Positions 28,648 through 46,522 of a stretch of DNA of 64,000 nucleotides are shown piece by piece (the stretch's first letter is position 1; each line of letters starts with the position of its first letter). The DNA lies in NCBI GenBank assembly GCA_964291295.2, contig OZ219754.1:2944001-3008000 (forward strand). Reading direction: 5' to 3'. A model generated the notes under the pieces. It saw only the letters and a program-made list of their open reading frames with translations, ran no database searches and was not told the origin of the DNA. Source of the DNA: an uncultured Candidatus Binatia bacterium (GTDB taxonomy: Bacteria > Desulfobacterota > Binatia > UBA9968 > JAJDTQ01). Position numbers and translations under genes: made by a program.

Positions 28648-29026
28648 GCGGTTGCCCGTTTCATGTCACGATTTGTTTCCCTGACGGATTTCGCCTAGAC
28701 TCGTTCCCATCTTCACTCCCCGCACACCCGTATCTAGTAGCGAACCATGGATTCAGGTGTCAAGAAGTGCGCGGGGTCGCGCGGCTGTCCGACGGACGAG
28801 ACGCGCACGCGGCAAGCCGTGCGAAACACTCCAGCCACCCTCCTGATCGTTCTGGCGCGGGCGCTCGTCCCGACCGTCATCGTCGGCGCTTCCAGAGCGT
28901 GGAACCGGGAACGGCGCGCCGCCATCGCCGAAAACGCCGGTATCGCCCCGGCCCCCGGGCGCAACGCGTTCAGGCTTCCCTCCATCCGACACGGCACGGG
29001 TCCGACGGCAGGATGACGGATCACCC

Positions 29027-29884
29027 ATGTCGCCGCAATTCCTCGCCTTGGTAACATCGTTCTTCTACGCGGGCTGCTTTCTAGCCACCCGGCGGGGGCT
29101 GCTGTACTCCACTCCAGCCACGGCCGCCTATGTGGCGTTGGCCGTCAACAGCACGATCCTGTGGGCGATCGTCTTCCTGACCGGCGGCATCCCCGCCGTC
29201 CCCCGGGTGGCCACCGCCTGCTTCGTGGCGGCGGGCCTGATCCAGCTTGGCACGCGCCTGTTCGCCTACCACGGCGTGGCCCGCCTCGGTGCCAGCGTCA
29301 CCAGCACCGTCCAGTCCACCAACCCGGTGTTCGGCACCGCCCTGGCGGTCCTCTTCCTGCACGAGACGGTGACGCCGCTCCTGCTCTTCGGCACCGGCTC
29401 GGTGGTACTCGGCATCATTCTGCTTTCGTGGAAGCCGCAGCAGCAGACCTGGCGGGCCCGGGATCTGGTCTTCCCCTTTGCCGCCGCCCTCACCGCCGGG
29501 GTGAACCACCCGATTCGCCGCTACGGGCTGGCCTTCGCCAACCAGCCACTCTTTCTCAGCGCGGTGATGGGGCTTGCCGCGCTGAGCCCCATGTTGTGCA
29601 ACCTCGCAAATCCGCGCGTCCGGAAAACCATCGTGCTCCACCGCCGCGCCATGCCCTACTTTCTGGCCACCGGAGTCTTCGAGGCCGTGGGCATCTGGTC
29701 GCTGGTATCGGCGCTGGGCATCGGCAACGTGGTGGTGGTGGGCCCCATCGTGTGCGTCGCGCCCCTCTGGGTGCTGCTGGGCACCCTGCTTTTCTCCCGC
29801 GACGTCGAGCGGGTGAACCTCCAGACCGGCATTGCCACCCTGTTCGTCATCACCGGAATCGTCGCCGTCTACCTGCAGGGCTGA
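29027..29884 (+). CDS. DMT/EamA family transporter
   Basis: About 10 TM segments; STNPVF..LA.LFLHE; two EamA repeats. Confidence 0.88.
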   Translation: MSPQFLALVTSFFYAGCFLATRRGLLYSTPATAAYVALAVNSTILWAIVFLTGGIPAVPRVATACFVAAGLIQLGTRLFAYHGVARLGASVTSTVQSTNPVFGTALAVLFLHETVTPLLLFGTGSVVLGIILLSWKPQQQTWRARDLVFPFAAALTAGVNHPIRRYGLAFANQPLFLSAVMGLAALSPMLCNLANPRVRKTIVLHRRAMPYFLATGVFEAVGIWSLVSALGIGNVVVVGPIVCVAPLWVLLGTLLFSRDVERVNLQTGIATLFVITGIVAVYLQG

Positions 29885-30114
29885 TTTTCTTGTCGGCCGG
29901 GTGACCCGCGTGCGGTGATGGCGGCCCGGGCCATCTCTTTTCGATGTCGTGGCCGGCCGGCCACGGCGGGACTGCCGGCACTCCGGACGCTGAAGTGGGA
30001 GGCGAGGTCGAACCCGCTGAACGGGCCGGCCCTGGAGGTTCCGGAACAGAGGCTCGATCAGGCTCCCTCAGGAAGGCCGCCGGCGGTCCGGACGTGCTTC
30101 CCGTGAAGCGGCCT

Positions 30115-33100
30115 TCAGGGAACGACGGTCTCCGCCATCTCCCGGTAACGGCAGAATGCGTTCGCCAGCCGCATTTGCCGGGGGGTTCGACATTCCGGCT
30201 CGAACAGCGCCGGGTTTGCCAACAGAACGCTGACGCAGCGGGCACGTGAAGTTGCCACATTGAGACGGTTGAGGCTGTAGAGAAACTCCATTCCATGCGG
30301 TGCGTCCCTCGGCGCGGAGGTTGCCATCGAATAGATGACGAGAGGCGCCTCCTGGCCTTGAAACTTGTCCACGGTGCCGATGCGGGCTCCGGGCAACCGC
30401 TCCCGCAGTGCAAAGACCTGCGCGTTGCAAGGTGCGATGATCCGTATGTCTTCCAGTCCCAAAGCACGTTCGTCGCCGTTCCTGTCAAGCCATGTCGCAC
30501 GCTCCTCCATCAGTGTTCTTACAAGGGTGCGAACCCTGTCCGCTTCTTCAGGTGACGCGGTCTGGTTGCCGTCATGAGCGACCGGCAGCCAGCGCAGCCC
30601 GCTGCCCTGGACGAGGCCGCCGGAGAGGATGCGCTGGTTTTCGAGGCCGGGTCGGGAATGCAACCGACCCTCGTAGAACACCTCACTCGTGAATGCGCAT
30701 ATGTCCGGATGCAGTCTCCATGTCTGTTCCAGAAACAGCCCACGATCGGCCTCGATGGTCGGCCGCCCGCCCAGCAGATGATCCAGGGCCGAGACGGCCG
30801 TGCCGTCGGGATGGCCGCCTTGTATCGGCTGTTCCAGTTGCTGCGGATCACCGACAAGCACGAGTGCGGCCGCGGCCAGGGAAACGGCAAGCACGTTGGC
30901 CAGCGACATCTGCGCCGCTTCGTCCACGAACAACACGTCGACCGTGTTGCGAGCTTCGCGACGCGCCCAGAGCCATGCCGTGCCGCCCGCGACCTGGCAG
31001 TCCCTCCGCAACGCCCTGAAGACCTCCCCGTTCGTGGTCACAAAGCGCAAGCGATCCAGATCCGGTTCTCTTGCAGGCGATTTTTGTACCGCTGTCAGAT
31101 CCGTTCCGCTCTCTTCGGCCGCCCTCACCACTTCGTCGAGCAGATTGCGAATGACCTTGTGGCTGTTCGCCGTAATGCCGACTCTGGCACCCGCGCCGAC
31201 CAGAGCACAAATCATCCGCGCGCCCGTGAAGGTCTTGCCGGCACCCGGAGGCCCCTGGATCGGCAGCACGCCGCCTTCGAGAAGCGGCGCGATTCGCAGG
31301 GCTGCGTCGACGGTCGATTCTCCGTCACGTTGCAGAGCGGCACCGCCGATACGCGGCCGCCGCCTCAGCAACAGGTCGCGCGCCACCTGCCGGCCCTTGC
31401 CGCCTTCAATACCGTTCGCCGCGACATGCTCCCCGATGCCGGCGAGCGACTCCGCGAGGACCCTGGCCTTCACCACCTCGTGGGAAAAAACCGCGGCTGG
31501 ATGCCGGTCTGTACGGTCTGCACGCTTGCTGATGTCAACGGTGCGGTCCTCGACAGATATCGCCTCCAACGTGCCGATTTCCTCCCCGCCTGCGCTCATC
31601 AGCCTTTTGCCGCCGCGCAGATCGGTTTCCTGTGCGGGGAAGCGATAGCGATGCACCGGCGCCTTCCGAGTACCCCCGACCGCCTTCACAAACTCGAGGT
31701 CGGCGACGGCGCGGCGCTCGTCGATCAGGTCGTCCGCGGACAGATCGCTCAAACGGAAATATTCCCACCAGACGGATTTGTCCTCGCGCCGGTGCCAATC
31801 CGCGATGTTCGCCAACAGCCACCGTGCCTGCTGCCCGGCGGTCCGGTTGCCGGCATCCACCGGCACGTCTCCGGTCAGCCGTTCCGTCAGAGCGTTCAAG
31901 CGTTCCTGCCAGGCGCTGATGGCTGCGCTGGGATCGCCGTTCCCGGACCCGGGCCTCGCTATCCGAACCCCGGACCGGATCTGTTGGTTCCGCACGCTTT
32001 CGAGCCAGTCGCGCAGGCCGAGCGTCGAAAGACAGTCGTCGCGGTTGTAGTCCTGCACAACCCTTCGGCTCTCGCCGGTCAAGCCCCCGACATCGGCAAA
32101 CTCCAGGCAAGCCTGGACGTGCGCCAGCGCGCGGTTGGCTTCAGGCAGAGCGATGCCGCGCCTGAATTCGTGAAACCGCTCGAGTTCCTTGAGCGAGTAA
32201 CTTTCCACGCTGGCGCGAATGCCGCCGCGCACGACGCTGTGGAGATCCACCAGCAAACCCGCGCGAAGCATCCGGTCGATCTCTTCCTCCCGCGTGGCGT
32301 ATCGGCCCATCAGACGCTTGAGCGCAGCCGGCTCATACGGAGCGAAGTGATAGACATGCATGTCCGGATAACGCTGCCAGCGCGCGATGATGCCGTCGAC
32401 GAACTCCTCGAAGGCAATCTTCTCCTCCTCGCGAGTGAGCGACCACCGAGCCGTATAGTGCGCGGTGCCCTGTTCGCCCAACGCAACATGACCGAACAGA
32501 TATTCGAGACCGCCCTCGCCAACGTAGGGATCTCCTTCCAGGTCGAAGAAGAGATCCCCGGCTGACGGTTCCGGCAACCGTGCCAGGCCATGTCCCGCCA
32601 AGGGCTCGAGCGGCTCGTAAACGGGCATCCCCTCTTCGCGGGCGGCGACCTGTACCCGGGCCTGCTCGCGGATTCGCTCGTACGTATGGACCGCACCGCG
32701 CTCCGGCTTCCACGTCAGCGGCAGCGGTTCGGCGGCAAGCGCCGTCACCGTGGTGATATCGCGCCGTCTCAACTCCCCGATCTGGAGACCGGACGTTCCG
32801 GCAACGAGGGACAGATGGTCGTCGGCACGGCGGCGGGCATCGCAGACCCGCCGCCAGCGGCAGACTTCACAGTGCTGTCTGGGATCCGGACAGGTTTGCA
32901 CACCCGCATCATCGACCACGGCCGCTTCCAGACTTCGTTTCACGAGCCGGTAATAGGCCAAGTAGTCGTTCGACCGAAAAACCTGCGGCTCGAAGTCCGA
33001 CCCCACGACATGCATGAACTCCGGGACCAGGCCCTGCACTTTCGCGACAAGATCCGTATAGAGACAGAGTTGCAGAACACTCCCGCCTTTGGTTTCCCGC

Positions 33101-33510
33101 GCGAGCTTGGTGTCCATCACTTCGTAGGACCATTCGCCAAGGTCGCTCGGCGTATCCACACGCCTCAGGATGTCTGCTCGACCGCCCCACCGCCCGTCCA
33201 GCAGAACGCCCCGGCAGATGACCTCCGCGCCGGCGCTCATGGCGTCCAGGGTCTCCCTGGCCTGCTTCTCTTCCAGCCCTGCACCCTCGATCCGCACGAT
33301 CTCGCGACCCACCCCTTCGAGATGGTCGCGAAAAGCCTGTTCATGCAGGTCGCCCCGCCTGCGGAGAATTTCGAGCAGCCGGTCCCGACGCTCTGGCTTC
33401 GAGCGGGCGCCTCTCGCAACCTCGATGTTCAGTTGGGTGAGGTGATTGCAACTCAAGTGGCCCGCCAGGTCGGTGGCACTCAAGTGGAGGATTCCCTTGT
33501 TGTCCCACAT
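30115..33510 (-). CDS. TM0106-family RecB-like nuclease, RNase H-like domain and UPF1-like SF1 helicase
   Basis: LSATDL..HLSC.H; GRADIL..YEVMDTKL; CEVCRWRRVC; FFDLEG..YNRDD; GPPGAGKT, DEAAQ, VGDPQQL, GTVDKFQGQE, RLNVATSRAR. Confidence 0.92.
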   Translation of the reverse strand: MWDNKGILHLSATDLAGHLSCNHLTQLNIEVARGARSKPERRDRLLEILRRRGDLHEQAFRDHLEGVGREIVRIEGAGLEEKQARETLDAMSAGAEVICRGVLLDGRWGGRADILRRVDTPSDLGEWSYEVMDTKLARETKGGSVLQLCLYTDLVAKVQGLVPEFMHVVGSDFEPQVFRSNDYLAYYRLVKRSLEAAVVDDAGVQTCPDPRQHCEVCRWRRVCDARRRADDHLSLVAGTSGLQIGELRRRDITTVTALAAEPLPLTWKPERGAVHTYERIREQARVQVAAREEGMPVYEPLEPLAGHGLARLPEPSAGDLFFDLEGDPYVGEGGLEYLFGHVALGEQGTAHYTARWSLTREEEKIAFEEFVDGIIARWQRYPDMHVYHFAPYEPAALKRLMGRYATREEEIDRMLRAGLLVDLHSVVRGGIRASVESYSLKELERFHEFRRGIALPEANRALAHVQACLEFADVGGLTGESRRVVQDYNRDDCLSTLGLRDWLESVRNQQIRSGVRIARPGSGNGDPSAAISAWQERLNALTERLTGDVPVDAGNRTAGQQARWLLANIADWHRREDKSVWWEYFRLSDLSADDLIDERRAVADLEFVKAVGGTRKAPVHRYRFPAQETDLRGGKRLMSAGGEEIGTLEAISVEDRTVDISKRADRTDRHPAAVFSHEVVKARVLAESLAGIGEHVAANGIEGGKGRQVARDLLLRRRPRIGGAALQRDGESTVDAALRIAPLLEGGVLPIQGPPGAGKTFTGARMICALVGAGARVGITANSHKVIRNLLDEVVRAAEESGTDLTAVQKSPAREPDLDRLRFVTTNGEVFRALRRDCQVAGGTAWLWARREARNTVDVLFVDEAAQMSLANVLAVSLAAAALVLVGDPQQLEQPIQGGHPDGTAVSALDHLLGGRPTIEADRGLFLEQTWRLHPDICAFTSEVFYEGRLHSRPGLENQRILSGGLVQGSGLRWLPVAHDGNQTASPEEADRVRTLVRTLMEERATWLDRNGDERALGLEDIRIIAPCNAQVFALRERLPGARIGTVDKFQGQEAPLVIYSMATSAPRDAPHGMEFLYSLNRLNVATSRARCVSVLLANPALFEPECRTPRQMRLANAFCRYREMAETVVP

Positions 33511-33665
33511 CAAGCGATTTCTCTTTCTCAATCCCCATGTCACCGCGGGTGCGAAACAGGGCGCATGGCAGGATGCATGGCACATGGCCTGAACCCGGGG
33601 ACAGCCACTCCGGGATCGGACCCGTCACCGGAGCCGCCCTGTTACGCAGTCGCGCGAAAGACAGC

Positions 33666-33815
33666 CTACCGCTTGCGACGGCGGTTGGGCCTCTGGGCCA
33701 GCGCCGAAGCGGCGGCAGTCTTTGCGGCCTTGCTGGACAGTGGGTTCCGCAGGACCTTGGAAGCGGCCGACGCGGCCTTCCTGCTGGCGACTTCGGTGTT
33801 TCTCTTGCGTTTCAT
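33666..33815 (-). CDS. 49-aa K/R/A/S-rich small protein (below ORF-track cutoff)
   Basis: MKRKRNTEVASRKAASAASKVLRNPLSSKAAKTAAASALAQRPNRRRKR*; SD-like AAAGGA upstream; co-oriented with TM0106 gene. Confidence 0.75.
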   Translation of the reverse strand: MKRKRNTEVASRKAASAASKVLRNPLSSKAAKTAAASALAQRPNRRRKR

Positions 33816-33821
33816 GGCAAG

Positions 33822-33925
33822 GAGTTCCTTTCAAGAGTTCCTTTCAAGGTTGAGCTTGACCGGACCACGCCGGTCAGATAAGTAGATACACGTATTTGGC
33901 GCCATGTCAATATGCTTTATTGACA
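33822..33925. promoter_or_regulatory. Divergent promoter region with two palindromes and a 13-bp duplication
   Basis: TGTCAATA-N5-TATTGACA (33905-33925, TTGACA on both strands); TGACCGG-N6-CCGGTCA (33857-33876); GAGTTCCTTTCAA x2 (33822-33847). Confidence 0.7.
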
Positions 33926-33958
33926 GAATAAATCTTCTCTACGGACCGGAGAGCGAGT

Positions 33959-34861
33959 GTGATACAGGAACCTGACACCGGGAATGCGGGAGGCGAGGCC
34001 CGCCAGGCACTGAGGTGGGGCATTGAACAACGGCTCGAGTTCATCGATTTCCGCCTCTTTTGGGACGGCCGCATAAACCGTGGCGACATCACCGAAAAGT
34101 TCGGAATTTCCATTCCCCAAGCGTCAGCCGATCTCGCACGGTACCGGGAGATGGCGCCGGACAACCTCCGCTATGACCTGAGCCTCAAGTGCTATCTGGC
34201 AACGCAGGAGTACCGGCCGGTTTTCGAGGTCGAAGACGCAGGCCAGTATCTGGCACAACTGAAGTCTCTCGGGAGCGGCACGACGGCACGGGAAGAGACC
34301 TGGCTGGCCGAAACGCCCGAGTTCCGGATCGTGCCGACCCCAGGGAGGAATGTGGACAGTCGGAGCCTGAGGGCGGTCTTGCGCGGCATTCGAGATGGCC
34401 TCGCGTTCCACATTCGATATCAGTCGATGTCAAGACCGGAACCGCACTGGCGTTGGATCACGCCGCACGCGCTGGGTTTCGACGGCTTCCGGTGGCATGT
34501 GCGGGCCTTGTGCCACAACGATGATACCTTCAAGGATTTCGTGTTCGCCCGAATTTACGAAATCGGGGAATCCCGGCCCCATGCCATGGATTCAAGGGCC
34601 GACAAAGCTTGGTTCGATTCGGTGACAGTGATAGTCTCTCCCAACCCCGGTCTCTCGGAAAGCCAGTCGAACGCAGTCAAGATCGACTATGGCATGCCGG
34701 AAGGAGTACGGGCGATTACCCTCTCAGGTGCTCTCCTCTACTATTTCCTGAAGCACATGGGACTCCTTGTGGATGCGCAACGACCGCAGGACCAGCAGAT
34801 CGTGCTCGTGAATAAGGCAGAAGTGATGGCAGCGTTGAATCGATCGTGGGGAACGCGGTGA
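33959..34861 (+). CDS. CapW-like WYL-domain transcriptional regulator
   Basis: LRWGIEQRLEFIDFRLFWDGRINR.D...FGISIPQASADL..Y; YQSMS..RWITPHALGFDGFRWHVRA; FKDF..ARI. Confidence 0.9.
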   Translation: MIQEPDTGNAGGEARQALRWGIEQRLEFIDFRLFWDGRINRGDITEKFGISIPQASADLARYREMAPDNLRYDLSLKCYLATQEYRPVFEVEDAGQYLAQLKSLGSGTTAREETWLAETPEFRIVPTPGRNVDSRSLRAVLRGIRDGLAFHIRYQSMSRPEPHWRWITPHALGFDGFRWHVRALCHNDDTFKDFVFARIYEIGESRPHAMDSRADKAWFDSVTVIVSPNPGLSESQSNAVKIDYGMPEGVRAITLSGALLYYFLKHMGLLVDAQRPQDQQIVLVNKAEVMAALNRSWGTR

Positions 34862-35075
34862 CCTGATATCCCGTGCCAGGAGTCTGCGCCGCGGAACAGG
34901 ATGAAAAGAGAAGGCGGGATGGCTTTGAAGGGGATGGATTGCGCAAGGAGACGAGAACATGATGATGGAAGGCAGAGTTGGATGCCGACGACGTTTCGTT
35001 CCTTCCGCATGAGCCGGCAATGATGGTGAAGGTACTGGCTTACATGATGCTCCGGCGCCGCGGGTGGAGAGATCA

Positions 35076-36638
35076 ATGACCCGACGCCGTCTTCCGATCG
35101 GAATCCAGGACTTCCGCACGATCCGGAGCGAGAACTTCCACTATGTCGACAAGACCTGCCTCATCCGGCAACTGGTGTATGAGGGGCGCCACTATTTCCT
35201 GTCCCGGCCACGCCGGTTCGGCAAGAGCCTGCTGCTCGACACGCTGCGGTCGCTGTTTGCCTGTCACGAACCCCTGTTCCGGGGACTGGACATCCACCCT
35301 CATTGGGACTGGTCCTCGCCGCATCCGGTGGTGCGGCTGAGCTTCGACGGGAAATACAATGAACCCGGGGATATCGAGCGCAACATCCTGACCCAACTCG
35401 AATTGATCGAACGCGATGCCGGTCTCCCGCCCGCTTCCTGCAGGACCGGGCCCGAACGCCTTCTCGATCTTCTCCATCGACTCCACGCCGCCGCCGGGCG
35501 GCCGGTGGCAGTGCTGGTGGACGAGTATGACAAGCCCATCCTCGACGTGCTCCACGACCCGGAGCTCGCGGCGGCCAACCGGGACTACCTGCGCGGCTTC
35601 TACGGCATCGTCAAGGGCAGCGCCGCACATGTCCGCTTCGTCTTCGTCACCGGTGTCAGCATGTTCTCCAAGGTCAGCCTGTTCTCGGGGCTCAACAATC
35701 TGAAGGACATCAGCCTTGATCCGCGCTACGCCACCATCTGCGGCTACCGGGACGAGGATCTGGATCGGGTCTTCGGCGCCGAGATGGCCGGGCTGGACCG
35801 CGATGCAATCCGCACCTGGTACGACGGCTATCACTGGCGGGGCGGGGAGCGGGTCTACAATCCCTACGACGTGCTTCTGCTGCTCGACAGCCGCGAGTTC
35901 CGTCCGTACTGGTTCGAGACCGGCTCTCCGAACTTCCTGTTCCGGATGCTGATGGAGAAGTCCGTGAGCCCGATGGAACTGGAGGGCCGGCTGGCGGACA
36001 TGTCGTTGATCTCCAAGTTCGATGTGGGCGATATCGACATCGAGGCGCTGCTCTTCCAGACCGGCTGTCTGACCATTGCGGAGGAAGAGAGGCTGGGCCA
36101 CCGGACCCTGTACCGGCTGGACTATCCCAATCTGGAGGTTCGGCTGAGCTTGAACGACGAGTTGCTTGCCTGGCTGGGCAAGAAGGGGGCCGAGCCGCTG
36201 GAGCGGGGCCGGGAGTTCTGCGCGCTGCTGGAGGCCGGCGACTTCACGGGCTTCGGCGAGAGGCTCCGCGCCTGGCTGGCGGGGATCCCCTACCAGTGGC
36301 ATGCCAAGGGCGATCTGGCGCGCTACGAGGCCTGGTACGCGAGCCTTCTCTACATGTGCCTGCGCTCCATCGGAGCGGACCTCCGGGTGGAAGAGGCCTC
36401 GCATCATGGCCGCGCGGACACGGTGTTGCTTCTCGGCGGGCAGGTCTTCGTGCTGGAGTTCAAGATGGCCGAAGGCGAAGATGACAGCGCTGCCGCACTG
36501 GATGCGGCGCTCGCGCAGATGCGCGAGCGGGGCTACGCGGAGAAGTACCGCGACCACGACGGACCGGTCCATTTGATCGGCGTGGCTTGCGGGCGCGAGG
36601 CGCGGAACCTTCTCGAAGTCCGCGCCGAGCCCGCATGA
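35076..36638 (+). CDS. AAA-ATPase-like protein with C-terminal PD-(D/E)xK nuclease (PDDEXK_9 type)
   Basis: LPIGIQDF..YVDKT, SRPRRFGKS, LVDEYDKP, FSGLNN, GRAD...LEFK, QMRERGYAEKY. Confidence 0.92.
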   Translation: MTRRRLPIGIQDFRTIRSENFHYVDKTCLIRQLVYEGRHYFLSRPRRFGKSLLLDTLRSLFACHEPLFRGLDIHPHWDWSSPHPVVRLSFDGKYNEPGDIERNILTQLELIERDAGLPPASCRTGPERLLDLLHRLHAAAGRPVAVLVDEYDKPILDVLHDPELAAANRDYLRGFYGIVKGSAAHVRFVFVTGVSMFSKVSLFSGLNNLKDISLDPRYATICGYRDEDLDRVFGAEMAGLDRDAIRTWYDGYHWRGGERVYNPYDVLLLLDSREFRPYWFETGSPNFLFRMLMEKSVSPMELEGRLADMSLISKFDVGDIDIEALLFQTGCLTIAEEERLGHRTLYRLDYPNLEVRLSLNDELLAWLGKKGAEPLERGREFCALLEAGDFTGFGERLRAWLAGIPYQWHAKGDLARYEAWYASLLYMCLRSIGADLRVEEASHHGRADTVLLLGGQVFVLEFKMAEGEDDSAAALDAALAQMRERGYAEKYRDHDGPVHLIGVACGREARNLLEVRAEPA

Positions 36639-36810
36639 GCCGAACCCGCCAACGCCGGACACCACGACACCGCCGAATCCCTGCCGGAATGCCAACCTCG
36701 GCACCCGGTTCGCCGAACCGTGCGGTCAGGTGAAGAACAGAAAGGACAGTATCCCGGGCGTCGAGCCGGATGCGCTGCGCATGAATGACGGCCACGGCAG
36801 AACGCCGGGA

Positions 36811-36863
36811 TGCCTTGACATGCCTTGACATGCCTTGACATGCGCCATAGGGCATATTACGGT
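36811..36863 (+). promoter_or_regulatory. higBA promoter with triplicated -35 repeat
   Basis: TGCCTTGACA x3 (36811-36840); last TTGACA is 17 bp from TACGGT; ATG 6 nt later. Confidence 0.65.
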
Positions 36864-36868
36864 CCGCC

Positions 36869-37147
36869 ATGATACGGAGTTTCAGGAGCCGGGCGCTGCG
36901 GCGCTTCATGGAGAGCGGCGATGCGCGGCGCATCCACCCGGAGCACCGAGAGACCGTGCGCGACATCCTGGTGCGTCTCAATGCGTCCGCGGCCCCGGAC
37001 GACATGGCCCTGTCGGGGTTTCGACTGCACCCGCTCAAGGGCATGTATGCCGGCTTCTGGGCGGTGACGGTGCGCGCCAACTGGCGGGTGATCTTCCGGT
37101 TCGAGGACGGCCACACCGCCGATGTCGACTATCTGGACTACCATCAG
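36869..37147 (+). CDS. higB: HigB-family toxin (plasmid maintenance killer); expected stop is CAG, ORF reads on to 37888
   Basis: [45 protein letters not shown] then CAG. Confidence 0.85.
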
Positions 37148-37160
37148 GGAGGCAAGGCCC

Positions 37161-37448
37161 ATGCTGATGCACGATCCGCCCCACCCGGGCGCCTTCATCC
37201 GGCGCCAGTGCCTCGAACCCCTCGGCCTGACGGTGACCGAGGCTGCGAAGGGGCTCGCGGTCTCGCGCAACACGCTCTCGCTTCTGCTCAACGGCCGCCT
37301 CGGCATCTCGCCGGAGATGGCGATCCGGCTGTCGGAGGCCTTCGGCGGAAGCCCCGAAAGCTGGTTGACCCAGCAGATGCAGTACGACCTCTGGCATGCA
37401 CAGCAGAGCCGCAACCCGGTCGAGGTTCGCAAATTTGCGGCGACATGA
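37161..37448 (+). CDS. higA: HigA-family antitoxin (XRE HTH)
   Basis: [52 protein letters not shown]; SD GGAGG. Confidence 0.93.
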
Positions 37449-37559
37449 CCGGCGCGCCGCCCTGGACCTGCTCCAGTACCTCGTCGTCCGCGCCAAGGTC
37501 TTCGCCGAGTTGTTGCAGAACAGCCGCCGCGCCCGCGTCCACAGGATCCGTATTGCCGT

Positions 37560-37933
37560 TGAACACTCCGCTCCGCGCCGAAGAGATCCGTTCATCACCG
37601 TGCTCTCTTGCCAACTCGTCCAGGCCATCCGCACTCGCCTGCGTCAGGCACACGAGAACGCCAGCTGGACCACGCTGCGCCGCGTCGTCCAAGGACAGCA
37701 GGCATCACCGGCACATGCCGGCTCACCACCACGTGCCGGCGGGCGCACCCTGCACATGCGCAGGGCGACCCGAGCCGAACCCACCCGGCAGGCCGTCTAC
37801 AAAGCCGTGGACATCAATCCCGTTCCCGGAGGAACCCGCGCGCAGTCAATCCTCATGTAGTGCCACTCGCCGCTTTTGCCCACCATAACCATATGATATG
37901 AAAAGAAATTGTACAGAGGCTGGTAAAGTTGGG
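37560..37933 (+). mobile_element. IS1634-like transposase C-terminal relic with right end
   Basis: FITVLSCQLVQAIRTRLRQ..ASWTTLRR..GQQ..GRTLHMRRATRAEP...; followed by GTAGTGCCAC and AAAGTTGGG end-like sequence. Confidence 0.6.
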
Positions 37934-38136
37934 CTACGCTCCGCCGAACGTCCAGCCTGGCGAAGCAGTCGTCAATACACCAACATTCGAAGCGGATCCG
38001 TCACCGGGGGAGATCAGGCCCGGCATCGGGGCAGCGCGTCCTTGTCCGGGCGGGAAGCATGCCGCGCGGGCTCCAGGCGACGGAGACGCTCTGAACGGAC
38101 CGGCCGCCACGGGATGCGGCGGCAGTGGAGGGGAAC

Positions 38137-38418
38137 ATGGACGAACGGGATGCGCCGCAGCCGGCATCGTCGGAGGAGGAAGACCGGATCGCCGAGACAC
38201 CAGCGGTCTTCGTCAACAAGGTCTTCGTTTCTCCCATGGCGGACGGCGCGAAGATCACATTTGCCGAGACACGCCGGGCGTCCGGCGAGGACCCAGCGTC
38301 ACCGCGGGTGGCGGTGTTCCTGCAACACGCCGACCTCGCTGCGCTCCGTCGCCTGCTCGACTGGACGGCGCAGGACAGCGAAACGCCGCCGGAGCGCTTC
38401 GGCGGGTCGATGCATTAG
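38137..38418 (+). CDS. Small hypothetical protein (DUF3467-like)
   Basis: PAVFVNKVFV...KITFAE...RVAVFL...L..LL pattern; SD GGAGGGG. Confidence 0.55.
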   Translation: MDERDAPQPASSEEEDRIAETPAVFVNKVFVSPMADGAKITFAETRRASGEDPASPRVAVFLQHADLAALRRLLDWTAQDSETPPERFGGSMH

Positions 38419-38686
38419 GGTCCATGCGTTGCGCCTGCCGACACCCCATATGGTCAGGGTTCGATGCGGGACACACGCGACGGGCGCGCGGGGCAGCGCC
38501 ATTTCCTCGGCCGTGAAGTCGCGCCCGTAATGGCGGCGCTCGACCGCGCCGGGTCGGCGCCGCTATCGCGCACCGATGCGGCGGCGGGTCGTGGGGACGA
38601 CCCTGAAACAGACGGAAATCCGGCTTGCGGTTCCTCAGAATCTTGGCGCGGGATGATCCTGCTTCACCCGTGCTCCGGCGTCCGCA

Positions 38687-41070
38687 TCAGAATTGCTTCT
38701 TCCATGCGGACCGGACCGTCCATTCCGAGGGCGAGTCCGTCCGGTGGCCGGGCTGCCGGCTCCAGACGGACTCGAGGGTGAGCACACCGCCAGCCAGGGA
38801 GTGGTCGATCCGCGCGCTCAAGTCAAGTTGGCGGCCGGTCGGTGCAAGCTCGACGCCGACGGTCTCGCCGGCCACCCGTCCGTCAACGGTACGGCCTGTG
38901 GGCAGATGGAGGAGCGCAACCCCATCCGTGACGCGGATCGGCTGCGCCACGGCGAAGCGCACGGTTGCGCCGGCGGGAGAGAGGATGTGGGCGGCGGCCA
39001 CGCGAAAGGCGCTGGTGCGCAATGTGGAGATATCACGGATGAACGGCCCGCCGATGGAGTCCGGACGCACGGCGCCCAGTTCTCCCTGAGCCGTCAGTCG
39101 CCATCCCGGAGGTCCGTCCGCCTCCAGCCGGGCCGAGAGAAAAGCGGTGTGGCCCGCGAGCCGCCCGAAGGCTCCGGAAGCGGAACTGCCCAGCAGGCTG
39201 TCCGGCTCTGTGAGCCAGCCGGCCTGCAGGGCGACCGCCGACAGGTCGGCGGGCCGCCATTGCGCGGCGAAGCCCGAAAGGGGCTGGCCCCCTCTCTCCC
39301 GCGGTCGCTGGAAGAAGGCGGCGGACCAGTCCCAGGGCGTGGAGAGGTCGAAGCGGGCGGCTCCGTCGGCAAGCGCAAGATGGCCGGGAAATCGGCCGGG
39401 GGGCCGGGCATGCAGTCTCCATGCGCCGTCCTCCGGCCGGGGCTTCCCGGAATCGGCGAAAAGCCGGTCCGGTAGAACGGGCGCGGCGCGTTGCGGGGGC
39501 GGCCGCACAAAGTCGCCGGCCGCGAACCAGAAGGGCGCGCCGGGTTCGTCGAAGGCGGCGACCTCGCGCGGCCCGAGAGCGCGGATGAAGCTGTCCCCCA
39601 GGGCTCGGCCCGGACGTAGCGCCGAGCCCGCGACACCGGCCCGTGCGTCCGGCTGCGCCACGGTCCCGCCGGGTCGTATGAAAGTGGCCGTACCCCACGG
39701 CGCCCAGGTCCAGGAGGCCCTGACCATAGGTGGAGCGGTCGGCATAAATGCCCGTCTTGTTGGCCGTGGCAAACAGGCGGCTCACCAGTTCGGTATTGGA
39801 GAGTTGGCCCCGGAAGATCTGCTTCATGATGGCCAGTCCCCCACTGACCATCGGCGCGGCATAGGACGTTCCACTCACAGTCCTCCAGTTTCGAACACCG
39901 CTCACTCCAAGAAGGTTCCGAAATGGGCGGCCCGGACATACGTACCCGGTGCGGCGATACAGTAATCGGCGGTGATGCCGCAGCGATTGGAGTAATCCGC
40001 AATGGCGCCATCCTCCTCCATGGCAGCGACCGCGATCGAATGACCTCGCAACTCCGCGATGCGAGAGGGCAGACCGGCCCAGAACTTGGGGGAAGAGCCA
40101 ATGACCTTGCCATTGACGCATCGTGCAGCCCCGACTTCAGCCGCGTTGCAGGCGCGTCCATGGTTATTGCCTGCGCTCCAGACAAGGATTGTTTTTTCCG
40201 GGCGTTCTCTTGCGCAAGGACGGAGATGGTTCTGGCGTAATTCCTGCTTATCTGGTTCTTTCTGTAATCTTCAATGTTTCCGTCAAATCGCATGCTGACG
40301 TTCAGGATATCTATCTGCCCTCCCAAAGCTGCCTTGAACAGCTCGGAATCATCGAGGTCCCTGCTGTTCAACTGTTTGAGCGAAGCGGGTTGATAAGAGG
40401 GGGGTCCACTGCTGGACGGGATAGCGAACATGGCGATGTCGGCGCCCCAGGCCACTCCTTAATGGGCCTCGGGATCGGATACCCGGTCGCCGGCTGCAAT
40501 GCTGGCGACCCGGGTTCCGCGGGAGTATTCCTTGGCGCTGGTCTCGTCCGTCGCTCCGTTCAAGAACGTCTCGCTGACATCCGTGTCCGAGAAAGAGGGG
40601 TGGTCCTTGTCGATGCCGGAATCGACAAAGCCAAGGGTGACGCCTTCCCCGGGCTCCGCATCGCCTCCCTTGAGGAGGCGCAGATGGGCATGGGCATGGT
40701 CGGCGCCAATGGTTTCCAGGCCCCATTGATTTCGGAAACCCGCTTCGCTCCTGTAATCGCGGGACCATTCCTTCGCCTTCAGGAGAAATGCCTCCCTTGC
40801 GATGCAGCCAAGTTCAAGGGAAGGGTGGGTGGCAACGGTGTCGGCCGGACAGGATGACGGCGCCCGCGACTCGTCGTCCACGGGATCCGGTGTTTGGGCG
40901 GGCAGCCCGTCGTCCACAGGGTCCGGTGTACCGCCGGACGGACCGCCGCCCGCGGAGCCCCCTCCCCCGCCTCCGCAGCCCGCCAGAGCGAGGGTCGCGC
41001 ACAGGGCCAAGGAGCAGACAATCCCGATCCTCCTCGGCGCCCGACGATTCTCGCGCCTGCCGCGACTCAT
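38687..41070 (-). pseudogene. S8 subtilase lipoprotein with autotransporter-like C-terminus, disrupted
   Basis: Lipobox LAGC plus Gly run; NQWGL..I, VDSG, RGT.VA (His site changed), YSNRCG, CIAAPG, GTSYAAP, YGQGLLDLG; TAA at 40459 and several frameshifts. Confidence 0.85.
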
Positions 41071-41540
41071 GATGCCGATGGCTGCACGTCCGGCGTTTCT
41101 GCACCCCGGCAAGTCTTGACCATGACCCACACGCCCCGCCCTCAAGTCATATGGGTCATGTTGCAGCCAGGGCAGGGCAAAGTTGCGCGCACATGAGGCG
41201 GATCGTGTCCCGACCGAACAGCCGCGGCAGATCGTGCATCCCGGATGCGTCCATCGCCGTCGTCATGACCTCATCCCCCGTCCCGAATTTTGCCTCCCGG
41301 TGTCATTCCCGCGCGCCTGCACCCTTCCTGGAATGACGAAAGCCCGGCGAAATTCAGCAACTCTTCTGTTTGATCTTCCGTCTGCAGGGGTCCGTCCAGA
41401 AGTCCACCGAGAGGTGCCTTTGTTCACCATTCAGGGCAAGTCTCGGTGTGCGACGGCTCAAGAGCCTGAGAGGGCTTGGGAACCGGGTGCGCCATGCGGC
41501 ATGTCGGCGCTTCCAATCAACCAGATACCGGAAGTGCCCG

Positions 41541-41640
41541 ATGTCCCTTGATGAGATCCGATGCGATGTGTGGACGTGATTTCAAGGGGAGTTGTTCCCG
41601 AGCCTGGCCGAGGCCATTGGCCCTCCGCGCAAGCGCCACA
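41541..41640 (+). mobile_element. Possible transposase N-terminal relic
   Basis: MSLDEIRCDVWT*FQGELFPSLAEAIGP resembles the W..FQ.ELFP.L.E..GPL N-terminus of some DDE transposases (recalled, unverified). Confidence 0.35.
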
Positions 41641-41787
41641 GCCAGTGCCCTGATCCTCCGCGAGGTCGGGGGACACGAGGGCTGGCCATGCGCCGGTCTT
41701 GGTGTCCTCGACCCGGAACACGCTGTTCGGGCCGGTCATCGTTCGATGATTCCGCTCGAATCGGAAAGTGTGCCACCGCGACCGGTT

Positions 41788-43500
41788 TCAGCCGGGAAAA
41801 TCGATACGCCATGCGGCCGCTGCGATTCTTGCCATGGTCTCCTGGCGCGCCTCGATGGTCTCGGGCGTCCATTCCGTGTATTTGCGCGCGATGTCCTGGG
41901 TCGTCTGGAAGCGGCTGTTCGCGAACACTGCCCGCTTGGCTTCATAGTCGGCATTGCCGGCGCCGCGATTCAGGCTCGCTTCCAGCAACGCCATGTTGCC
42001 GAGGCGCGATGTCTGCTCGTCCAGGTCTCCTTCGCCGAATCGGTCCCAGCCGTCTTCAGGATTCAGCGGACAGATATGCTCCAAGGTTATCCGGCTGTCC
42101 TCGAGGTCCAGGCGATTGCCCGAGGCCCGCCGCTCCAATTCGAACAGAATATAGCGGACGACCCGCTTGTTTCGCGTCTGCCCAACGCCGATGGACTTCT
42201 CGGCGAAACTCAGCCGGAACCGCTTGTCATCGGTATAGACCGTTCGCAAGCGGGCCATGATCTCCGAGATCGAGGAAGGATCGCCCCTCGAGATCCTCTG
42301 GGCCTCCGCATGGTAAATCCGCTCCTGCTCGCTTCCGTGAAGGCCGCCGATGACATTATAGCGGAAGGAGATAATGACTACGGAGTGCAGCAGTCTCTCG
42401 AAGTCCGCATCGCCAAGAGAACGCCGGGCAGCCAGCAGCAGCGGGAACGGCTGGCGGACACTGAACATGCGAAGGATCCGGGCATGCTGCTTCCACTCCA
42501 TGGGCCAGTCGGAGCCATCCGGTTGCGTCAACGCCAGATAGGCCTCGATATCGGCCTCGAGCTCCTGCAGGAGCGAAAACGCATCCCCCCTGTCCCGGAC
42601 TTGGGCGCGGACAGTCTTGAAAAGGTCCGACAACCGGACCGTGGTTCTCCGGCTTATCCAGTGGACACGCAGGAAATCCGGGAAACTTTCTTCTCCGAGC
42701 CTTCCTGTGATTCCGTTCCAGCGGCCTTCCAGCGCCTCGGTCTCACGCTCATGTTCACCTTGGCGATGCAGGAGCGAGAACAGGTAGTTTTTCAACAGGT
42801 CGGTCGCCGAGAGCTTCACGCCCCGCGCATTCAGCGTTTCGAATACCCGGTAGGCGTTCAGTTCATCGGTGACTGTGATGACGGTAAAGAGCAGTTTGTC
42901 GCTCATCCCGTCGATCAGCCGCACGACCGCCAGACCGGGGTCTTCCTCTTCGTCCAGATACTCCCGAAAACGACGGTCGAACCACTCGAACGCCTTGCGC
43001 ATATCGTGCTCCGACCTTTTGAATCCCCGTTTCGGCAGAGGCGAGATCAGCGGAACCAGATATGTCTGGAAATAGCGGTCATTGTTCCGGTTCAGTTTCA
43101 GCTTGGGTTCCGATACCAGCGTCACCGGATCCAGGTATCCGATATAGCCCTGCCGCAGGCTCTCAAGCCGCTTGCGGGTGTTTTCGGTATCCCGCCCCTT
43201 TTCCAGCAGAACCTGCAATTGCCGCAAGGCGGCCAGCACGAGAATATTCAGGGTTGTCAGGCGTTGTTGCCCGTCAATGATGTCGAACCTCTTGCCGTCC
43301 TCCGACTGCAGGACGAGATAGCCCATATAATGCGCCGGCTCCCCCTCCGGGCGCATGACCTCACGAATATCGTGCCAGAGGTCGTCCCACTCCTCTTCGC
43401 CCCAACTGTAGTCGCACTGGAACGGCGGCACCCGGTAGAGCAGGCCATTGCCCATCAACTGACGCCAGGTGCTGTTGTTCGTGTTGAAATTCGTAGCCAT
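41788..43500 (-). CDS. DUF262-DUF1524 (GmrSD-like type IV restriction endonuclease)
   Basis: VPPFQ(C)DYSW, DGQQRLTT, FETLNARG; HNH-type LEHICP..LGNMALL..LN. Confidence 0.9.
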   Translation of the reverse strand: MATNFNTNNSTWRQLMGNGLLYRVPPFQCDYSWGEEEWDDLWHDIREVMRPEGEPAHYMGYLVLQSEDGKRFDIIDGQQRLTTLNILVLAALRQLQVLLEKGRDTENTRKRLESLRQGYIGYLDPVTLVSEPKLKLNRNNDRYFQTYLVPLISPLPKRGFKRSEHDMRKAFEWFDRRFREYLDEEEDPGLAVVRLIDGMSDKLLFTVITVTDELNAYRVFETLNARGVKLSATDLLKNYLFSLLHRQGEHERETEALEGRWNGITGRLGEESFPDFLRVHWISRRTTVRLSDLFKTVRAQVRDRGDAFSLLQELEADIEAYLALTQPDGSDWPMEWKQHARILRMFSVRQPFPLLLAARRSLGDADFERLLHSVVIISFRYNVIGGLHGSEQERIYHAEAQRISRGDPSSISEIMARLRTVYTDDKRFRLSFAEKSIGVGQTRNKRVVRYILFELERRASGNRLDLEDSRITLEHICPLNPEDGWDRFGEGDLDEQTSRLGNMALLEASLNRGAGNADYEAKRAVFANSRFQTTQDIARKYTEWTPETIEARQETMARIAAAAWRIDFPG

Positions 43501-43683
43501 TCGCGTGCCGAATTGCCGACAAAGCCGCTTCGGTCCGCGGCTCGAAATTCGAATTATAGCAGGCAGACCGGCCTTTCGCGGCAAGCTTTGCCCGGAAACC
43601 GAAGGCTTGGCCGCATACGGTCCGTCATGCCGGATTCGGGGCGCCTGCGGCGGCGGCCCGGCAGGGAGGCGCTTGGAGGTATG

Positions 43684-44330
43684 TTACGGACGGCAATGCC
43701 GTGTTCGACGACCCAGGCGAACCGCTTCTCGCCATCCACGAGTGTGATGGGAGCGGCTCCCGCGGCGAAGGCGGCGTCCTGAGTGCCCTTCGAGAACCGG
43801 GAAGTCCTGAAGATAGTTCCACGAACTGCTTCGAAGCGGTACAGGGAACCTCGAAGCGCGTCGAGATCCTTGCGCTGTATCGGGCGGCGGTGGCGCCTGG
43901 CTTGGACTACTTCCCGGATCGAGGTGATACCAACCTTGATGTCGGCGACGACATCGGCTCCGCCATTACCTGACCGGGATGTGGCTTCCACGTTCCGGTA
44001 ATCCATTTCCCCGACAGTCGTTTGATCAGGTGTTCAACTGCGAACGGTTCCATGTCCTGAAGCTGATCATGCAGGCTATCGCGCACCGTTTGGGCGTGCT
44101 GCGGTACCAGTGTCCACACTTGGTTGTGGTTTCCAGCTACGGTATTGCCTTCGTTTTTGTTCTCCTGGAGGTAACGCAAGCCGTTGGGTGTCGCAGAGTA
44201 TAATCTCCCCCTTCGCTCAATCAGGCCACGAGATTGACGAGACGCCGGCCCATCGTGTCCTTGATCACGGACTCGGCGCGGATTGAAGAGCTGCGATTGA
44301 GGTAGTCTGCCCACTGGTCGAGTAGACCTC
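43684..44330 (-). pseudogene. Degenerate Mrr-family restriction endonuclease
   Basis: MEPFAVEHLIKRL, frameshift, MDYRNVEAT..SGNGGADV..VVQARR..ITLVDGE; catalytic-motif residues altered, both ends broken; bounds approximate. Confidence 0.75.
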
Positions 44331-44512
44331 CACGTAGGCCAGGAGCCTGTGCCGCAGAAAGTTTTCGTGGGACAGAGATCCACCAGAGTCCCACTTGGCG
44401 CCCAATTCATGTCCAATAATGGGACAAGGCTACACGTTTCTGGCATTTTGGACGAGAATCTGGCCATGCTCTCCCACCGGTCACATCCCGGAGCGTCCTG
44501 CAGCACAGGCTC

Positions 44513-45673
44513 CTAGGGCCACAGGGTGTTATCGGCGAGTGCCTGTTGCAACCGGTCGGTGGACCAGACGTCGATCCCGTCCCCGGTCCGGAACGACCGC
44601 TTGCCGCCGTAGGCCAGCACGCGCCGCGCGATTCCCGGAAGCTCCGCGATCGCGCGCAATCCCGGCAGCATTCCGGTGTGATAGCGCGGCTGCGACTTGA
44701 CCTCGATCGCCGCCAGCTCGCCGCCCCGGCGCAGCAGAAAATCGACCTCGGTGCGGTTCGCCGGGTGCGGCGCCCAGTAGTGCATCTCGTCGAACAGCCC
44801 ACCCTGCTCACCGTGCGCCCGCAGGAGGTGCAGGACCCAGCCTTCCAGGAGCGCGCCGCGTTCCTCGGGTGCGATCGGCCCGTGGAGCCTCTTCACCGCG
44901 CGGACCAGGCCGGGATCGACCCAGTAGAGCTTCGGATGGCCGCGCTCGCGCGTCCGCAGCCGCGGCTGGAACGCGGGCAGGCGGAACGCGAGCAGCGTGT
45001 CCTCGAGGATGTCCAGATAGCCCTGCACGGTGGTGCGCGCGACACCGCAGTCGCGCGCGATGCCGGATATGTTCACAACCTGGCCATGACAAAGCGCGGC
45101 GATCGGCAGGAAGCGCGCGAACCCCGGGAGATTCCGGACAAGACCCTCGGCCCGGACCTCCTCGCGGAGATAGAGCCGGACATAGCTCTCGAGAACCGCC
45201 CGCCGTTCCTCGGCGGCCCAGACCAGGGGGATGGTCCCGGTATCGAGGGCGGTATCAAGGTCGAAGTCGCCGCCGAGCTCGGCCGGGGTCAGGGGGTGCA
45301 TGGTCTTGTGCAGCGCCCGGCCAGCGAGCAGATTGACGCCGGCCGCCTTGAGCTTTCGCGCGCTCGATCCGAGCAGGGCGAAGTTGAGACGCCGATCCTC
45401 GATATGCCGGTGCACTTCGTTGAGCAGATTGGGCAGGCGCTGGATCTCGTCCACCACCACCCAGCTCCCGGGAGGCACGGACTGGAGATCCGCGGCGAAG
45501 AGGGACGGATCGGCGAGGTAGTCCTGGTAGCGGGCCTCGTCGAGCAGGTCGATACGCGGCGCATCGGGAAACTGCGCTCGCGCCCAGCTGCTCTTGCCGG
45601 CCCCGCGGACGCCGAGCAGAAAGAAGCTCTGCGCGGGCGGGCGGATCAGCCGGGGATAGGTCGTTCCCGCCAT
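44513..45673 (-). CDS. AAA_14 ATPase with DUF4143 (PD-(D/E)xK-like) domain
   Basis: GVRGAGKS, VDEIQR, LGSSA, KLYWVDPG, EVDFLL..AIEVKS. Confidence 0.9.
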   Translation of the reverse strand: MAGTTYPRLIRPPAQSFFLLGVRGAGKSSWARAQFPDAPRIDLLDEARYQDYLADPSLFAADLQSVPPGSWVVVDEIQRLPNLLNEVHRHIEDRRLNFALLGSSARKLKAAGVNLLAGRALHKTMHPLTPAELGGDFDLDTALDTGTIPLVWAAEERRAVLESYVRLYLREEVRAEGLVRNLPGFARFLPIAALCHGQVVNISGIARDCGVARTTVQGYLDILEDTLLAFRLPAFQPRLRTRERGHPKLYWVDPGLVRAVKRLHGPIAPEERGALLEGWVLHLLRAHGEQGGLFDEMHYWAPHPANRTEVDFLLRRGGELAAIEVKSQPRYHTGMLPGLRAIAELPGIARRVLAYGGKRSFRTGDGIDVWSTDRLQQALADNTLWP

Positions 45674-45698
45674 GGTGCCATCATATTTCGAAGAAAGA

Positions 45699-45714
45699 TG
45701 ACGATATATTGTCA
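45699..45714. promoter_or_regulatory. Near-perfect palindrome upstream of AAA_14 gene
   Basis: TGACGATATATTGTCA. Confidence 0.4.
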
Positions 45715-45854
45715 GTCGGGCATCGGCGAGTCAAGGACGCGGCGCAAGCACTTCTTGCCGGTAACCCATTCCTCCCGGCTGCGCGCCGCAACGAATGCCA
45801 CAGCCGCTGCGCCTGGCTCGGCGAGATGGAGGAGCGGCTGCGCGGCGAGCGGGG

Positions 45855-46520
45855 TCAAAGGGCTGTGGGTACGGCCAGGATCTTCGTCTGGAGCCAGTTC
45901 GACAAATCCTCGAGGCTCCGGGAACTGATCTCGTGTCCCATGTCGTATTCGCGGTACTCCACCGGAACCTGCAGCTTCTCGAGCAGCGTCAGGGAATGTC
46001 TGGCCCGCGCCAGCTCGATGAGTTCGTCGCGCTTGCCGTGCTGCACCAGGGTGGGCAGCGTGTCCACCCGCTGGGCCACGCCCATCGCCGACAGCGTACC
46101 CTCCCGCAGCCAGGAACTCAGGATGCACATGCCCGCGAAGCGGTCCGGCTGGGAAAGCCCGAGGCTGCAGGCCATGCCGCCGCCCTGGCTGAAGCCCAGC
46201 AGCACGAGCCTGCGGCGGTCCAGCGGATATCGCTCGTGGCATTGGTCCACGAACGTCCGCAGCCGGTCCCGTGCGGCAAGGAAGGCGCCGGTATCGATGT
46301 CGCCGCCCAATGACATGGGGAACCAGGCGTAACCGGTCACGCCCGGGCCCAACGGCACTTCCAGGGGGGCCTGCGGGCAAAGGAACCGGAACGCCCCGCC
46401 GCACAGGTTGGGGGCCAGACCCAGCAGGTCGGCGGCGTTGGCGCCTCGACCGTGCAGGGCCAAGATGGTCGGATGGGGCCCCTCTCCTTCTGGTTCGTAC
46501 ATGCAGTGCAGCAGTTCCAT
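45855..46520 (-). CDS. Phospholipase/carboxylesterase
   Basis: LHGRG, AWF, GFSQGG, HG.RD, MGHEI. Confidence 0.9.
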   Translation of the reverse strand: MELLHCMYEPEGEGPHPTILALHGRGANAADLLGLAPNLCGGAFRFLCPQAPLEVPLGPGVTGYAWFPMSLGGDIDTGAFLAARDRLRTFVDQCHERYPLDRRRLVLLGFSQGGGMACSLGLSQPDRFAGMCILSSWLREGTLSAMGVAQRVDTLPTLVQHGKRDELIELARARHSLTLLEKLQVPVEYREYDMGHEISSRSLEDLSNWLQTKILAVPTAL

Positions 46521-46522
46521 GA

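Follow-up and report, generated by a model that had tools for sequence, protein, structure and literature searches.

In a stretch of 64,000 nt of DNA from an uncultured Candidatus Binatia bacterium (GCA_964291295.2, contig OZ219754.1; hereafter the window, 66.1% G+C), three genes are arranged around a short control region at the left edge of a strain-specific defence island. On the plus strand, positions 33959-34861 encode a 300-aa regulator of the CapW family. On the minus strand, reading away from it, lie a small basic open reading frame (ORF) of 49 aa (33666-33815), which is the first gene from the CapW-facing promoter, and, beyond a spacer of 155 nt (33511-33665), a gene for a 1131-aa nuclease-helicase of the TM0106 family (30115-33510). 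An initial annotation, made from the sequence alone, had found the same three ORFs at these positions and had joined them into a candidate defence module in which the nuclease-helicase has a microprotein partner. In our view the locus is best explained as two portable units brought together at the border of a defence island, a mosaic in place of a fixed system of three parts.

The regulator matches CapW of S. maltophilia along its full length (7tb6; phmmer E 5.5e-68, query residues 16-290 against chain residues 7-284), and further matches among PDB chains are to CapW 9c5g (E 9.3e-62) and 7tb5 (E 7.5e-56) and to BrxR 7t8k (E 5.8e-42), with a WYL domain (PF13280) recognised at E 1.2e-9. What had been called a 'CapW-like WYL regulator' is thus a genuine member of the CapW/BrxR family, with winged helix-turn-helix (wHTH), WYL and WCX domains, and a putative transcriptional repressor. 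According to published accounts, CapW binds imperfect palindromes of 19-24 bp over the -10 site and responds to single-stranded DNA (ssDNA; PMC9122588, PMC11662680), and repression by the E. coli and S. maltophilia proteins is relieved by ssDNA or DNA damage (PMC11662680); both CapW and CapH+CapP are described as responding to ssDNA and DNA damage and as controlling immune and Bub operons (PMC13373217, 10.1101/2024.11.21.623953). Among 116 relatives of the regulator in species-representative genomes we surveyed the best 80 loci, taking as first divergent neighbour an ORF of at least 250 aa within 1 kb. Such a neighbour was present in 69 loci and missing from 11, and by PADLOC models the 69 comprise a phospholipase effector of the cyclic oligonucleotide-based anti-phage signalling system (CBASS) in 27 cases, LmuA/RTasMBL-like proteins in 17 and a CD-NTase (cyclase) in at least 14. 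A separate observation concerns the gene directly after the WYL gene, which in 44 of the 80 loci (L112-L162) encodes a protein of ~227-235 aa matching HalB, the oligo-dA-making nucleotidyltransferase of Hailong (PDB 9dbh, E 9.3e-30; for example L127:7938-8621); an ssDNA-sensing regulator adjoining an ssDNA-oligomer synthase may merit a look.

Between the start codons of the regulator and the small ORF lie 143 nt (33816-33958) with a G+C content of 46.9% against 66.1% for the window, and the early description of a short, AT-rich spacer with palindromes is borne out. The stretch holds two palindromes whose arms, of 7 nt or more, match perfectly, TGACCGG-N6-CCGGTCA at 33857-33876 and TGTCAATA-N5-TATTGACA at 33905-33925, a number reached in only 4 of 5000 shuffles. 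On the minus strand, TTGACA (33910 to 33905) and TATCTA (33888 to 33883), 16 nt apart, form a candidate promoter for the small ORF, and GAAAGGAA is located 9 nt upstream of its ATG. When the control regions of six loci with both CapW and the small ORF were aligned, the blocks TATATTGACA, CGTATAnnTTCTTA and CGTCAA were common to them (the partial L175 lacking the first), and in the window these blocks map to the same minus-strand TTGACA-16 nt-TATCTA arrangement reading into the small ORF. A simple sigma-70 scan of 33300-35200 returned no promoter-like site at its threshold. Of a CapW/BrxR regulator one would expect a divergent layout with a palindromic operator of ~20 bp at the promoter; the divergent layout is present here, and the two palindromes are candidate operators.

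The regulator, the control region and the small ORF travel together. Nucleotide homology to the closest CapW loci (blastn) runs over 33624-34833 in L084 and 33694-34843 in L083, and so covers CapW, the control region, the small ORF and a further 42 nt past the stop codon of the latter. These two loci hold the closest CapW relatives (76-77% protein identity) and are the only ones among the 80 CapW loci in which the small ORF was found beside the regulator, at 81% identity in L084 and 65% in L083. Starting instead from an alignment of three small proteins, we recovered 147 relatives and kept 80 loci, in five of which a CapW relative lies directly upstream and divergent (L083, L084, L192, L221 and L238), although the regulators of the last three are only 45-48% identical to that of the window. 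Together, these comparisons delimit a cassette of 1.2 kb made of the CapW gene, its divergent promoter and the small ORF, behind which the cargo is interchangeable: a CD-NTase (PDLC00770, E 7e-206) and a SAVED-2TM effector in L083, a 394-aa protein and an E1-E2-JAB fusion in L084, PDDEXK_1 proteins of 884 and 888 aa in L192 and L238, and an OLD-family ATPase-TOPRIM (AAA_15/AAA_21 with OLD TOPRIM) in L221. In L238 the small ORF ends inside the start of the cargo gene, and in L192 no more than ~20 nt separate the two. A sequence search of the PDB gave no match for the L192 cargo, nor for a neighbour in L007. On the far side of the regulator, the next gene in the three loci closest by CapW encodes a conserved protein of 184-191 aa, membrane-bound as judged by eye and without family match (L083:5999-6574, L084:7967-8521, L085:7688-8242), which is absent from the window, where the homology ends ~28 nt before the CapW stop codon.

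The small protein itself belongs to a family that has escaped naming. Searches of domain, PADLOC and NCBIfam models gave no family match; its 124 close relatives are all unnamed and carry no Pfam domain, 635 cluster representatives were recovered at E <=0.001, and a protein atlas search returned unnamed clusters only. An AlphaFold2 model (mean pLDDT, the predicted local distance difference test, 74.7) depicts a two-helix hairpin (helices 12-23 and 29-40) with basic tails, and the family motif is roughly EVTSKRAASAASKVLRNPKSSKAAKTAAGSALTQRPNRKK, occurring twice in some members. Third-position changes dominate in a codon-position test of the small ORF (11/18, 17/33 and 18/31), a pattern insufficient alone to prove the reading frame because the antisense frame has the same wobble positions; better support comes from the conservation of start, length and motif across the family. 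Where the small ORF was followed by a co-directional ORF of at least 120 aa within 450 bp (50 of the 80 loci), the downstream families were TIR_2 (5), DUF6791 (4), ThiF (3), SMODS (3) and PDDEXK_1 (2), with OLD-type AAA_15, PIN_12, HNH_5 and BrnT once each and housekeeping or unassigned families making up the rest. An upstream ORF within 700 bp was present in 71 of the 80, with matches to IrrE-like Peptidase_M78 (11), WYL (5) and class II ribonucleotide reductase (4). Relatives of the small ORF also come straight after M78-peptidase regulators, with E1-like (DUF6791-ThiF) cargo following, as in L199; the corresponding ORFs of L209 are assigned alike by cluster membership. Members of the family often sit behind DNA-damage-responsive regulators, and the genes that follow are often of the TIR, CD-NTase, E1-like or nuclease kind. 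The terms 'small protein' and 'small ORF' are absent from the available texts of PMC13373217 and PMC11662680, their supplements lying outside the search, and the word 'small' is absent from the available text of 10.1101/2024.11.21.623953, with PMC9122588 outside this term search. Within the same genus, a further family member of 66% identity occurs without CapW (L249, G015:C264, 7412-7552); the ORF after it encodes 1356 aa, of which only a HigA-like N-terminus could be recognised.

In the window, the position taken elsewhere by this varied cargo is occupied by the nuclease-helicase. Its open frame extends over 30115-33585 on the minus strand and would encode 1156 aa; homologues begin to align at about residues 26-35 and M26 (position 33510) is conserved in at least 80% of a 71-sequence alignment, so that the likely start is 33510 and the gene 30115-33510, in agreement with the 1131 aa first proposed. 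The protein is a member of TIGR03491, the TM0106 family of RecB-like putative nucleases, with a score of 257.4 bits where the cut-off is 97.45 (residues 36-528 aligned to profile positions 2-462 of 462). A PDDEXK_1 match falls slightly below its cut-off (21.7 bits against 22), and RNase_H_2 (PF13482, E 2.5e-14) and the superfamily 1 (SF1) helicase families AAA_11 (E 7e-11) and AAA_12 (E 1.5e-22) are recognised. Judged on the 71-sequence alignment, the nuclease residues D138, E155, D158 and K160, the four-cysteine set C46/C239/C242/C248, the DEDD-type exonuclease set D344/D348/E350/D352, and the helicase Walker A motif GPPGAGKT (K784) and DEAAQ (D888-E889) are each kept in at least 80-95% of sequences. 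Profiles and alignment thus bear out the domains originally proposed, and describe a predicted RecB/Cas4-like PD-(D/E)xK nuclease with a four-cysteine cluster, an RNase H-like (DEDD-type) exonuclease and an Upf1/Dna2-like SF1 helicase in one chain; with the catalytic motifs of all three present, the enzyme appears intact. The nuclease we take to be akin to the AddB/Cas4-type iron-sulfur nucleases. Only the helicase part matches solved structures, namely those of Upf1, Sen1, IGHMBP2 and DNA2, and only the helicase core (residues ~770-1143) is matched by PADLOC models (MkoA, MkoC and DpdJ); as had been anticipated, no PADLOC model covers the whole protein, and none matches the nuclease or exonuclease part. 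A literature search on the name TM0106 turned up no function, in keeping with the family having been called functionally uncharacterised, and the architecture did not turn up in a literature search on RecB-like nucleases, Dna2-like enzymes and anti-phage helicases.

How did such an enzyme come to stand behind a CapW cassette? The DNA homology of the cassette ends at ~33624, inside the 155-nt spacer, which marks a recombination joint, and we give an even chance to the reading that a cargo swap at this joint put the nuclease-helicase under CapW control. The gene holds the exact position and orientation that cargo holds in the five other cassettes. No terminator-like site was found on the minus strand over 33300-35200 (three were found, all on the plus strand), and the predicted RNA fold of 33495-33675 is no better than that of shuffled sequences (z -0.43); because no terminator is predicted after the small ORF, the helicase gene would be read through from the CapW-controlled promoter. 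Several observations weigh against a swap of this kind. Neither the 80 CapW loci nor the 80 small-ORF loci include the helicase; conversely, in the best 80 (42-61% identity) of at least 591 stretches encoding helicase relatives, a CapW relative was detected in a single locus (L020), both by tblastn and by a hidden Markov model (HMM) of the CapW family. CapW is present in this genome and in none of the 27 others available from the genus, a co-directional downstream ORF is lacking in 30 of the 80 small-ORF loci, partly through contig ends, and the 155-nt gap is wide enough to hold a promoter of its own. The same facts nourish a different account, one of chance adjacency: the cassette of CapW and small ORF would be a self-contained pair of genes or what is left of an operon after loss of its cargo, and the helicase would have landed beside it in a recombination hot spot, expressed from its own promoter as it is elsewhere. 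Such an account gains from the homology stopping 42 nt past the small-ORF stop codon and from the missing membrane protein after CapW, by which the cassette was cut on both sides, as well as from the small ORF standing without downstream cargo elsewhere and from 79 helicase loci without CapW, among which no other neighbour stands out. It must nevertheless explain the precise cargo placement and the lack of a predicted terminator, and also L020, a Woeseiaceae island (L020:81-9414) in which a CapW relative (48% identity) followed by an SNF2-NOV_C helicase-nuclease gene is divergent from a TIR_2 gene, a 54-aa zinc-ribbon ORF and a TM0106-helicase homologue. L020 is a second case of a CapW relative and a TM0106-helicase in one island. 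We consider accidental adjacency a somewhat doubtful explanation that keeps its weight through the rarity of the pairing and the room for a separate promoter in the 155-nt gap.

The helicase surveys also bear on whether the three genes form one obligate defence system with the microprotein as subunit or regulator of the nuclease-helicase. The genes are indeed adjacent and co-oriented, and the zinc-ribbon ORF of L020, which overlaps the end of the TIR gene, directly precedes the helicase homologue in a manner reminiscent of the window; however, it is unrelated in sequence to the 49-aa protein. Helicase relatives are widespread, the best 80 loci coming from Proteobacteria, Bacteroidota, Acidobacteriota, Chloroflexota and other phyla, and no convincing relative of the 49-aa protein occurs in these loci (best HMM E 0.039, at an unrelated position), nor is there a recurrent small basic ORF upstream of the helicase. 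With ORFs overlapping the helicase gene set aside, no neighbour family exceeds 4 of the 80: SNF2-type helicases adjoin the gene in four loci and an M78 peptidase is present in three, in two of which it is convergent and downstream of the helicase. The nuclease-helicase is thus a widespread stand-alone gene, for which these loci show no conserved partner, and members of the 49-aa family precede genes for TIR, CD-NTase, E1-like, nuclease and OLD proteins or stand by themselves. Conserved co-occurrence of helicase and WYL regulator, and a microprotein partnered with the helicase, had both been predicted, and neither is borne out in these surveys; lack of conserved co-occurrence was the initial annotation's own refutation test, and therefore the reading as a three-gene system fails. 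We regard an obligate system as very improbable. The small protein is a companion of the regulator and not a subunit of the helicase, travelling with CapW and other regulators in front of unrelated cargo. Of the defence module originally proposed, the conserved three-gene unit is lost (1/80, 0/80 and 0/80 in the helicase, CapW and small-ORF loci), and a weaker claim survives, that of a CapW-controlled defence gene within a defence island.

The island itself spans 16 kb (29877-45869), with the three genes at its left edge. Its flanks, 29026-29875 (an EamA-type transporter gene) and 45870-46900, are near-adjacent, 19 to ~690 bp apart, in all 18 same-genus genomes used for the comparison, and the intervening DNA is therefore a strain-specific island. 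Attachment-site-like direct repeats were not found at its ends. It is rich in genes of defence type: besides the trio, it carries an AAA-ATPase_like/PDDEXK_9 gene, a HigB-like toxin gene and, within 41788-45673, the coding sequences of a GmrSD type IV restriction enzyme, an Mrr-like (Mrr_cat) nuclease and a DUF4143/AAA_14 ATPase. These surroundings bear on a further account, in which the locus serves DNA repair and not phage defence, CapW inducing a Dna2-like end-processing enzyme and a small DNA-damage-response protein. The response of CapW to DNA damage, as described in PMC11662680, would suit such a role, as would the similarity of the helicase part to DNA2 and Upf1-type helicases and the company kept by the small ORF, whose relatives, among 71 loci, adjoin class II ribonucleotide reductase in four and stand behind IrrE-like M78 peptidases in 11. 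A core repair function sits poorly with a strain-specific island bearing GmrSD, Mrr and HigB genes, a pattern typical of accessory defence, and with the patchy occurrence of the helicase gene in the genus. It is present in only 6 of 28 genomes including this one (5 of the 27 others, at 59-63% identity) and sometimes broken, one copy holding a stop codon and two being split. The interrupted or split homologues lie at G037:C4:313091-316492, G017:C70:6329-8415 and G038:C1:2430630-2432299, one of them broken by a TAA stop, and suggest turnover of an accessory nuclease-helicase gene. We judge the repair account unlikely.

Two further features of the island stand apart from this argument. Directly after CapW lies the AAA-ATPase_like (PF09820) and PDDEXK_9 gene at 35064-36638, of which the genome contains three additional copies (86-93% DNA identity) and same-genus genomes contain relatives; it may be mobile or multi-copy. 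The stretch 38660-40949 recurs at another site of this genome with 93% identity; it holds subtilase-like fragments and, at 39149-39224, a 76-nt ARAGORN call of 'tRNA-Ser(gct)', whose length is low for a tRNA-Ser and which may be spurious.

Under the cargo-swap reading, a mechanism can be proposed by analogy with characterised CapW proteins. CapW would bind its palindromic operator and release it on binding ssDNA produced by DNA damage or infection. The cassette, comprising CapW, the divergent promoter and the gene for the 49-aa two-helix protein as the first transcribed, would have been joined to the helicase gene 42 nt past the small ORF. The second unit, a putative Dna2-like combination of iron-sulfur PD-(D/E)xK nuclease, DEDD-type exonuclease and 5'-3' SF1 helicase, occupies the place of the cargo on the same strand, 155 nt further downstream, and would probably be read through from the CapW-controlled promoter. 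Co-transcription and CapW repression, as we infer them here, would make the nuclease-helicase inducible by DNA damage or infection, and any anti-phage activity would presumably lie in unwinding and degrading the DNA ends of an invader, if the enzyme does not process damaged DNA instead. From this we would advance, as a tentative and on balance improbable proposal, a linked pair of ideas: that the 49-aa protein represents an unrecognised, widespread family, commonly the first gene of immune or stress operons under ssDNA-sensing regulators (CapW, or CapH+CapP-like M78 pairs), with its own function in the response to damage or infection, such as nucleic-acid binding or tuning of induction; and that the TM0106 Dna2-like nuclease-helicase is a novel effector against phages or plasmids, able to be fitted into cassettes of this kind. 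CapW-type regulators switch on CBASS, bacteriophage exclusion (BREX) and related systems, and the locus would provide the first regulatory link of the TM0106 family to an immune or DNA-damage response; the CapW cassette also offers a direct route to testing this large enzyme family. The small protein is the more surprising lead, being conserved across phyla, unnamed, and found repeatedly between ssDNA-sensing regulators and very different effectors. If it acts in induction or limits self-damage, its role would extend to many immune operons.

Set beside known systems, the regulatory half of the locus is the more familiar. With the CapW proteins of S. maltophilia, E. coli upec-117 as well as P. 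aeruginosa PA17 (7TB6, 7TB5, 9C5G) it shares a full-length match, divergent orientation and ~20-bp palindromes in the predicted promoter region, and its closest relatives control CBASS. It differs in having a nuclease-helicase in cargo position instead of a CD-NTase operon, and a 49-aa ORF between regulator and cargo. CBASS was considered for the locus and rejected, the cargo being a nuclease-helicase and PADLOC giving no cyclase match. BrxR of BREX (7T8K, 7QFZ) is likewise built of these three domains and likewise associated with defence cargo of varied kinds, but the match is weaker than that to CapW (E 5.8e-42 and 5.8e-26) and no BREX genes lie at this locus; Picton et al. 2022 are said to have set out the wider WYL family of defence islands. 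CapH+CapP, a helix-turn-helix repressor paired with an IrrE-like M78 peptidase in immune and Bub operons, resembles the cassette in that relatives of the 49-aa protein also stand behind M78 regulators, whereas the regulator in the window is CapW. On the side of the enzyme, Nhi is a helicase-nuclease defence protein, and Mokosh MkoA and MkoC, DpdJ and Hhe share the Upf1-like helicase core (MkoA E 9.6e-37 over residues 952-1117, MkoC E 1.2e-22). Their matches are confined to the helicase part, however, and the window protein has no PLD or Vsr nuclease; lacking a full-length signature match and a conserved partner gene in the 80 loci, the named systems Mokosh, Dpd and Hhe were rejected. Dna2 (5EAX and related entries; DNA2 E 6.5e-8) offers the closest parallel in layout, with the same N-terminal PD-(D/E)xK nuclease with its four-cysteine set and C-terminal Upf1-like SF1 helicase, but the window protein has an RNase H-like exonuclease (PF13482) between the two and shows no detectable sequence match to Dna2 outside the helicase. 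Within TIGR03491 the protein is no different from other members of the TM0106 family, and its novelty lies in standing behind a CapW cassette. Already known are the regulator family and the control of adjacent immune cargo by CapW; new are the nuclease-helicase in the role of cargo and a small protein without a name that recurs between regulators sensing ssDNA and effectors of diverse kinds.

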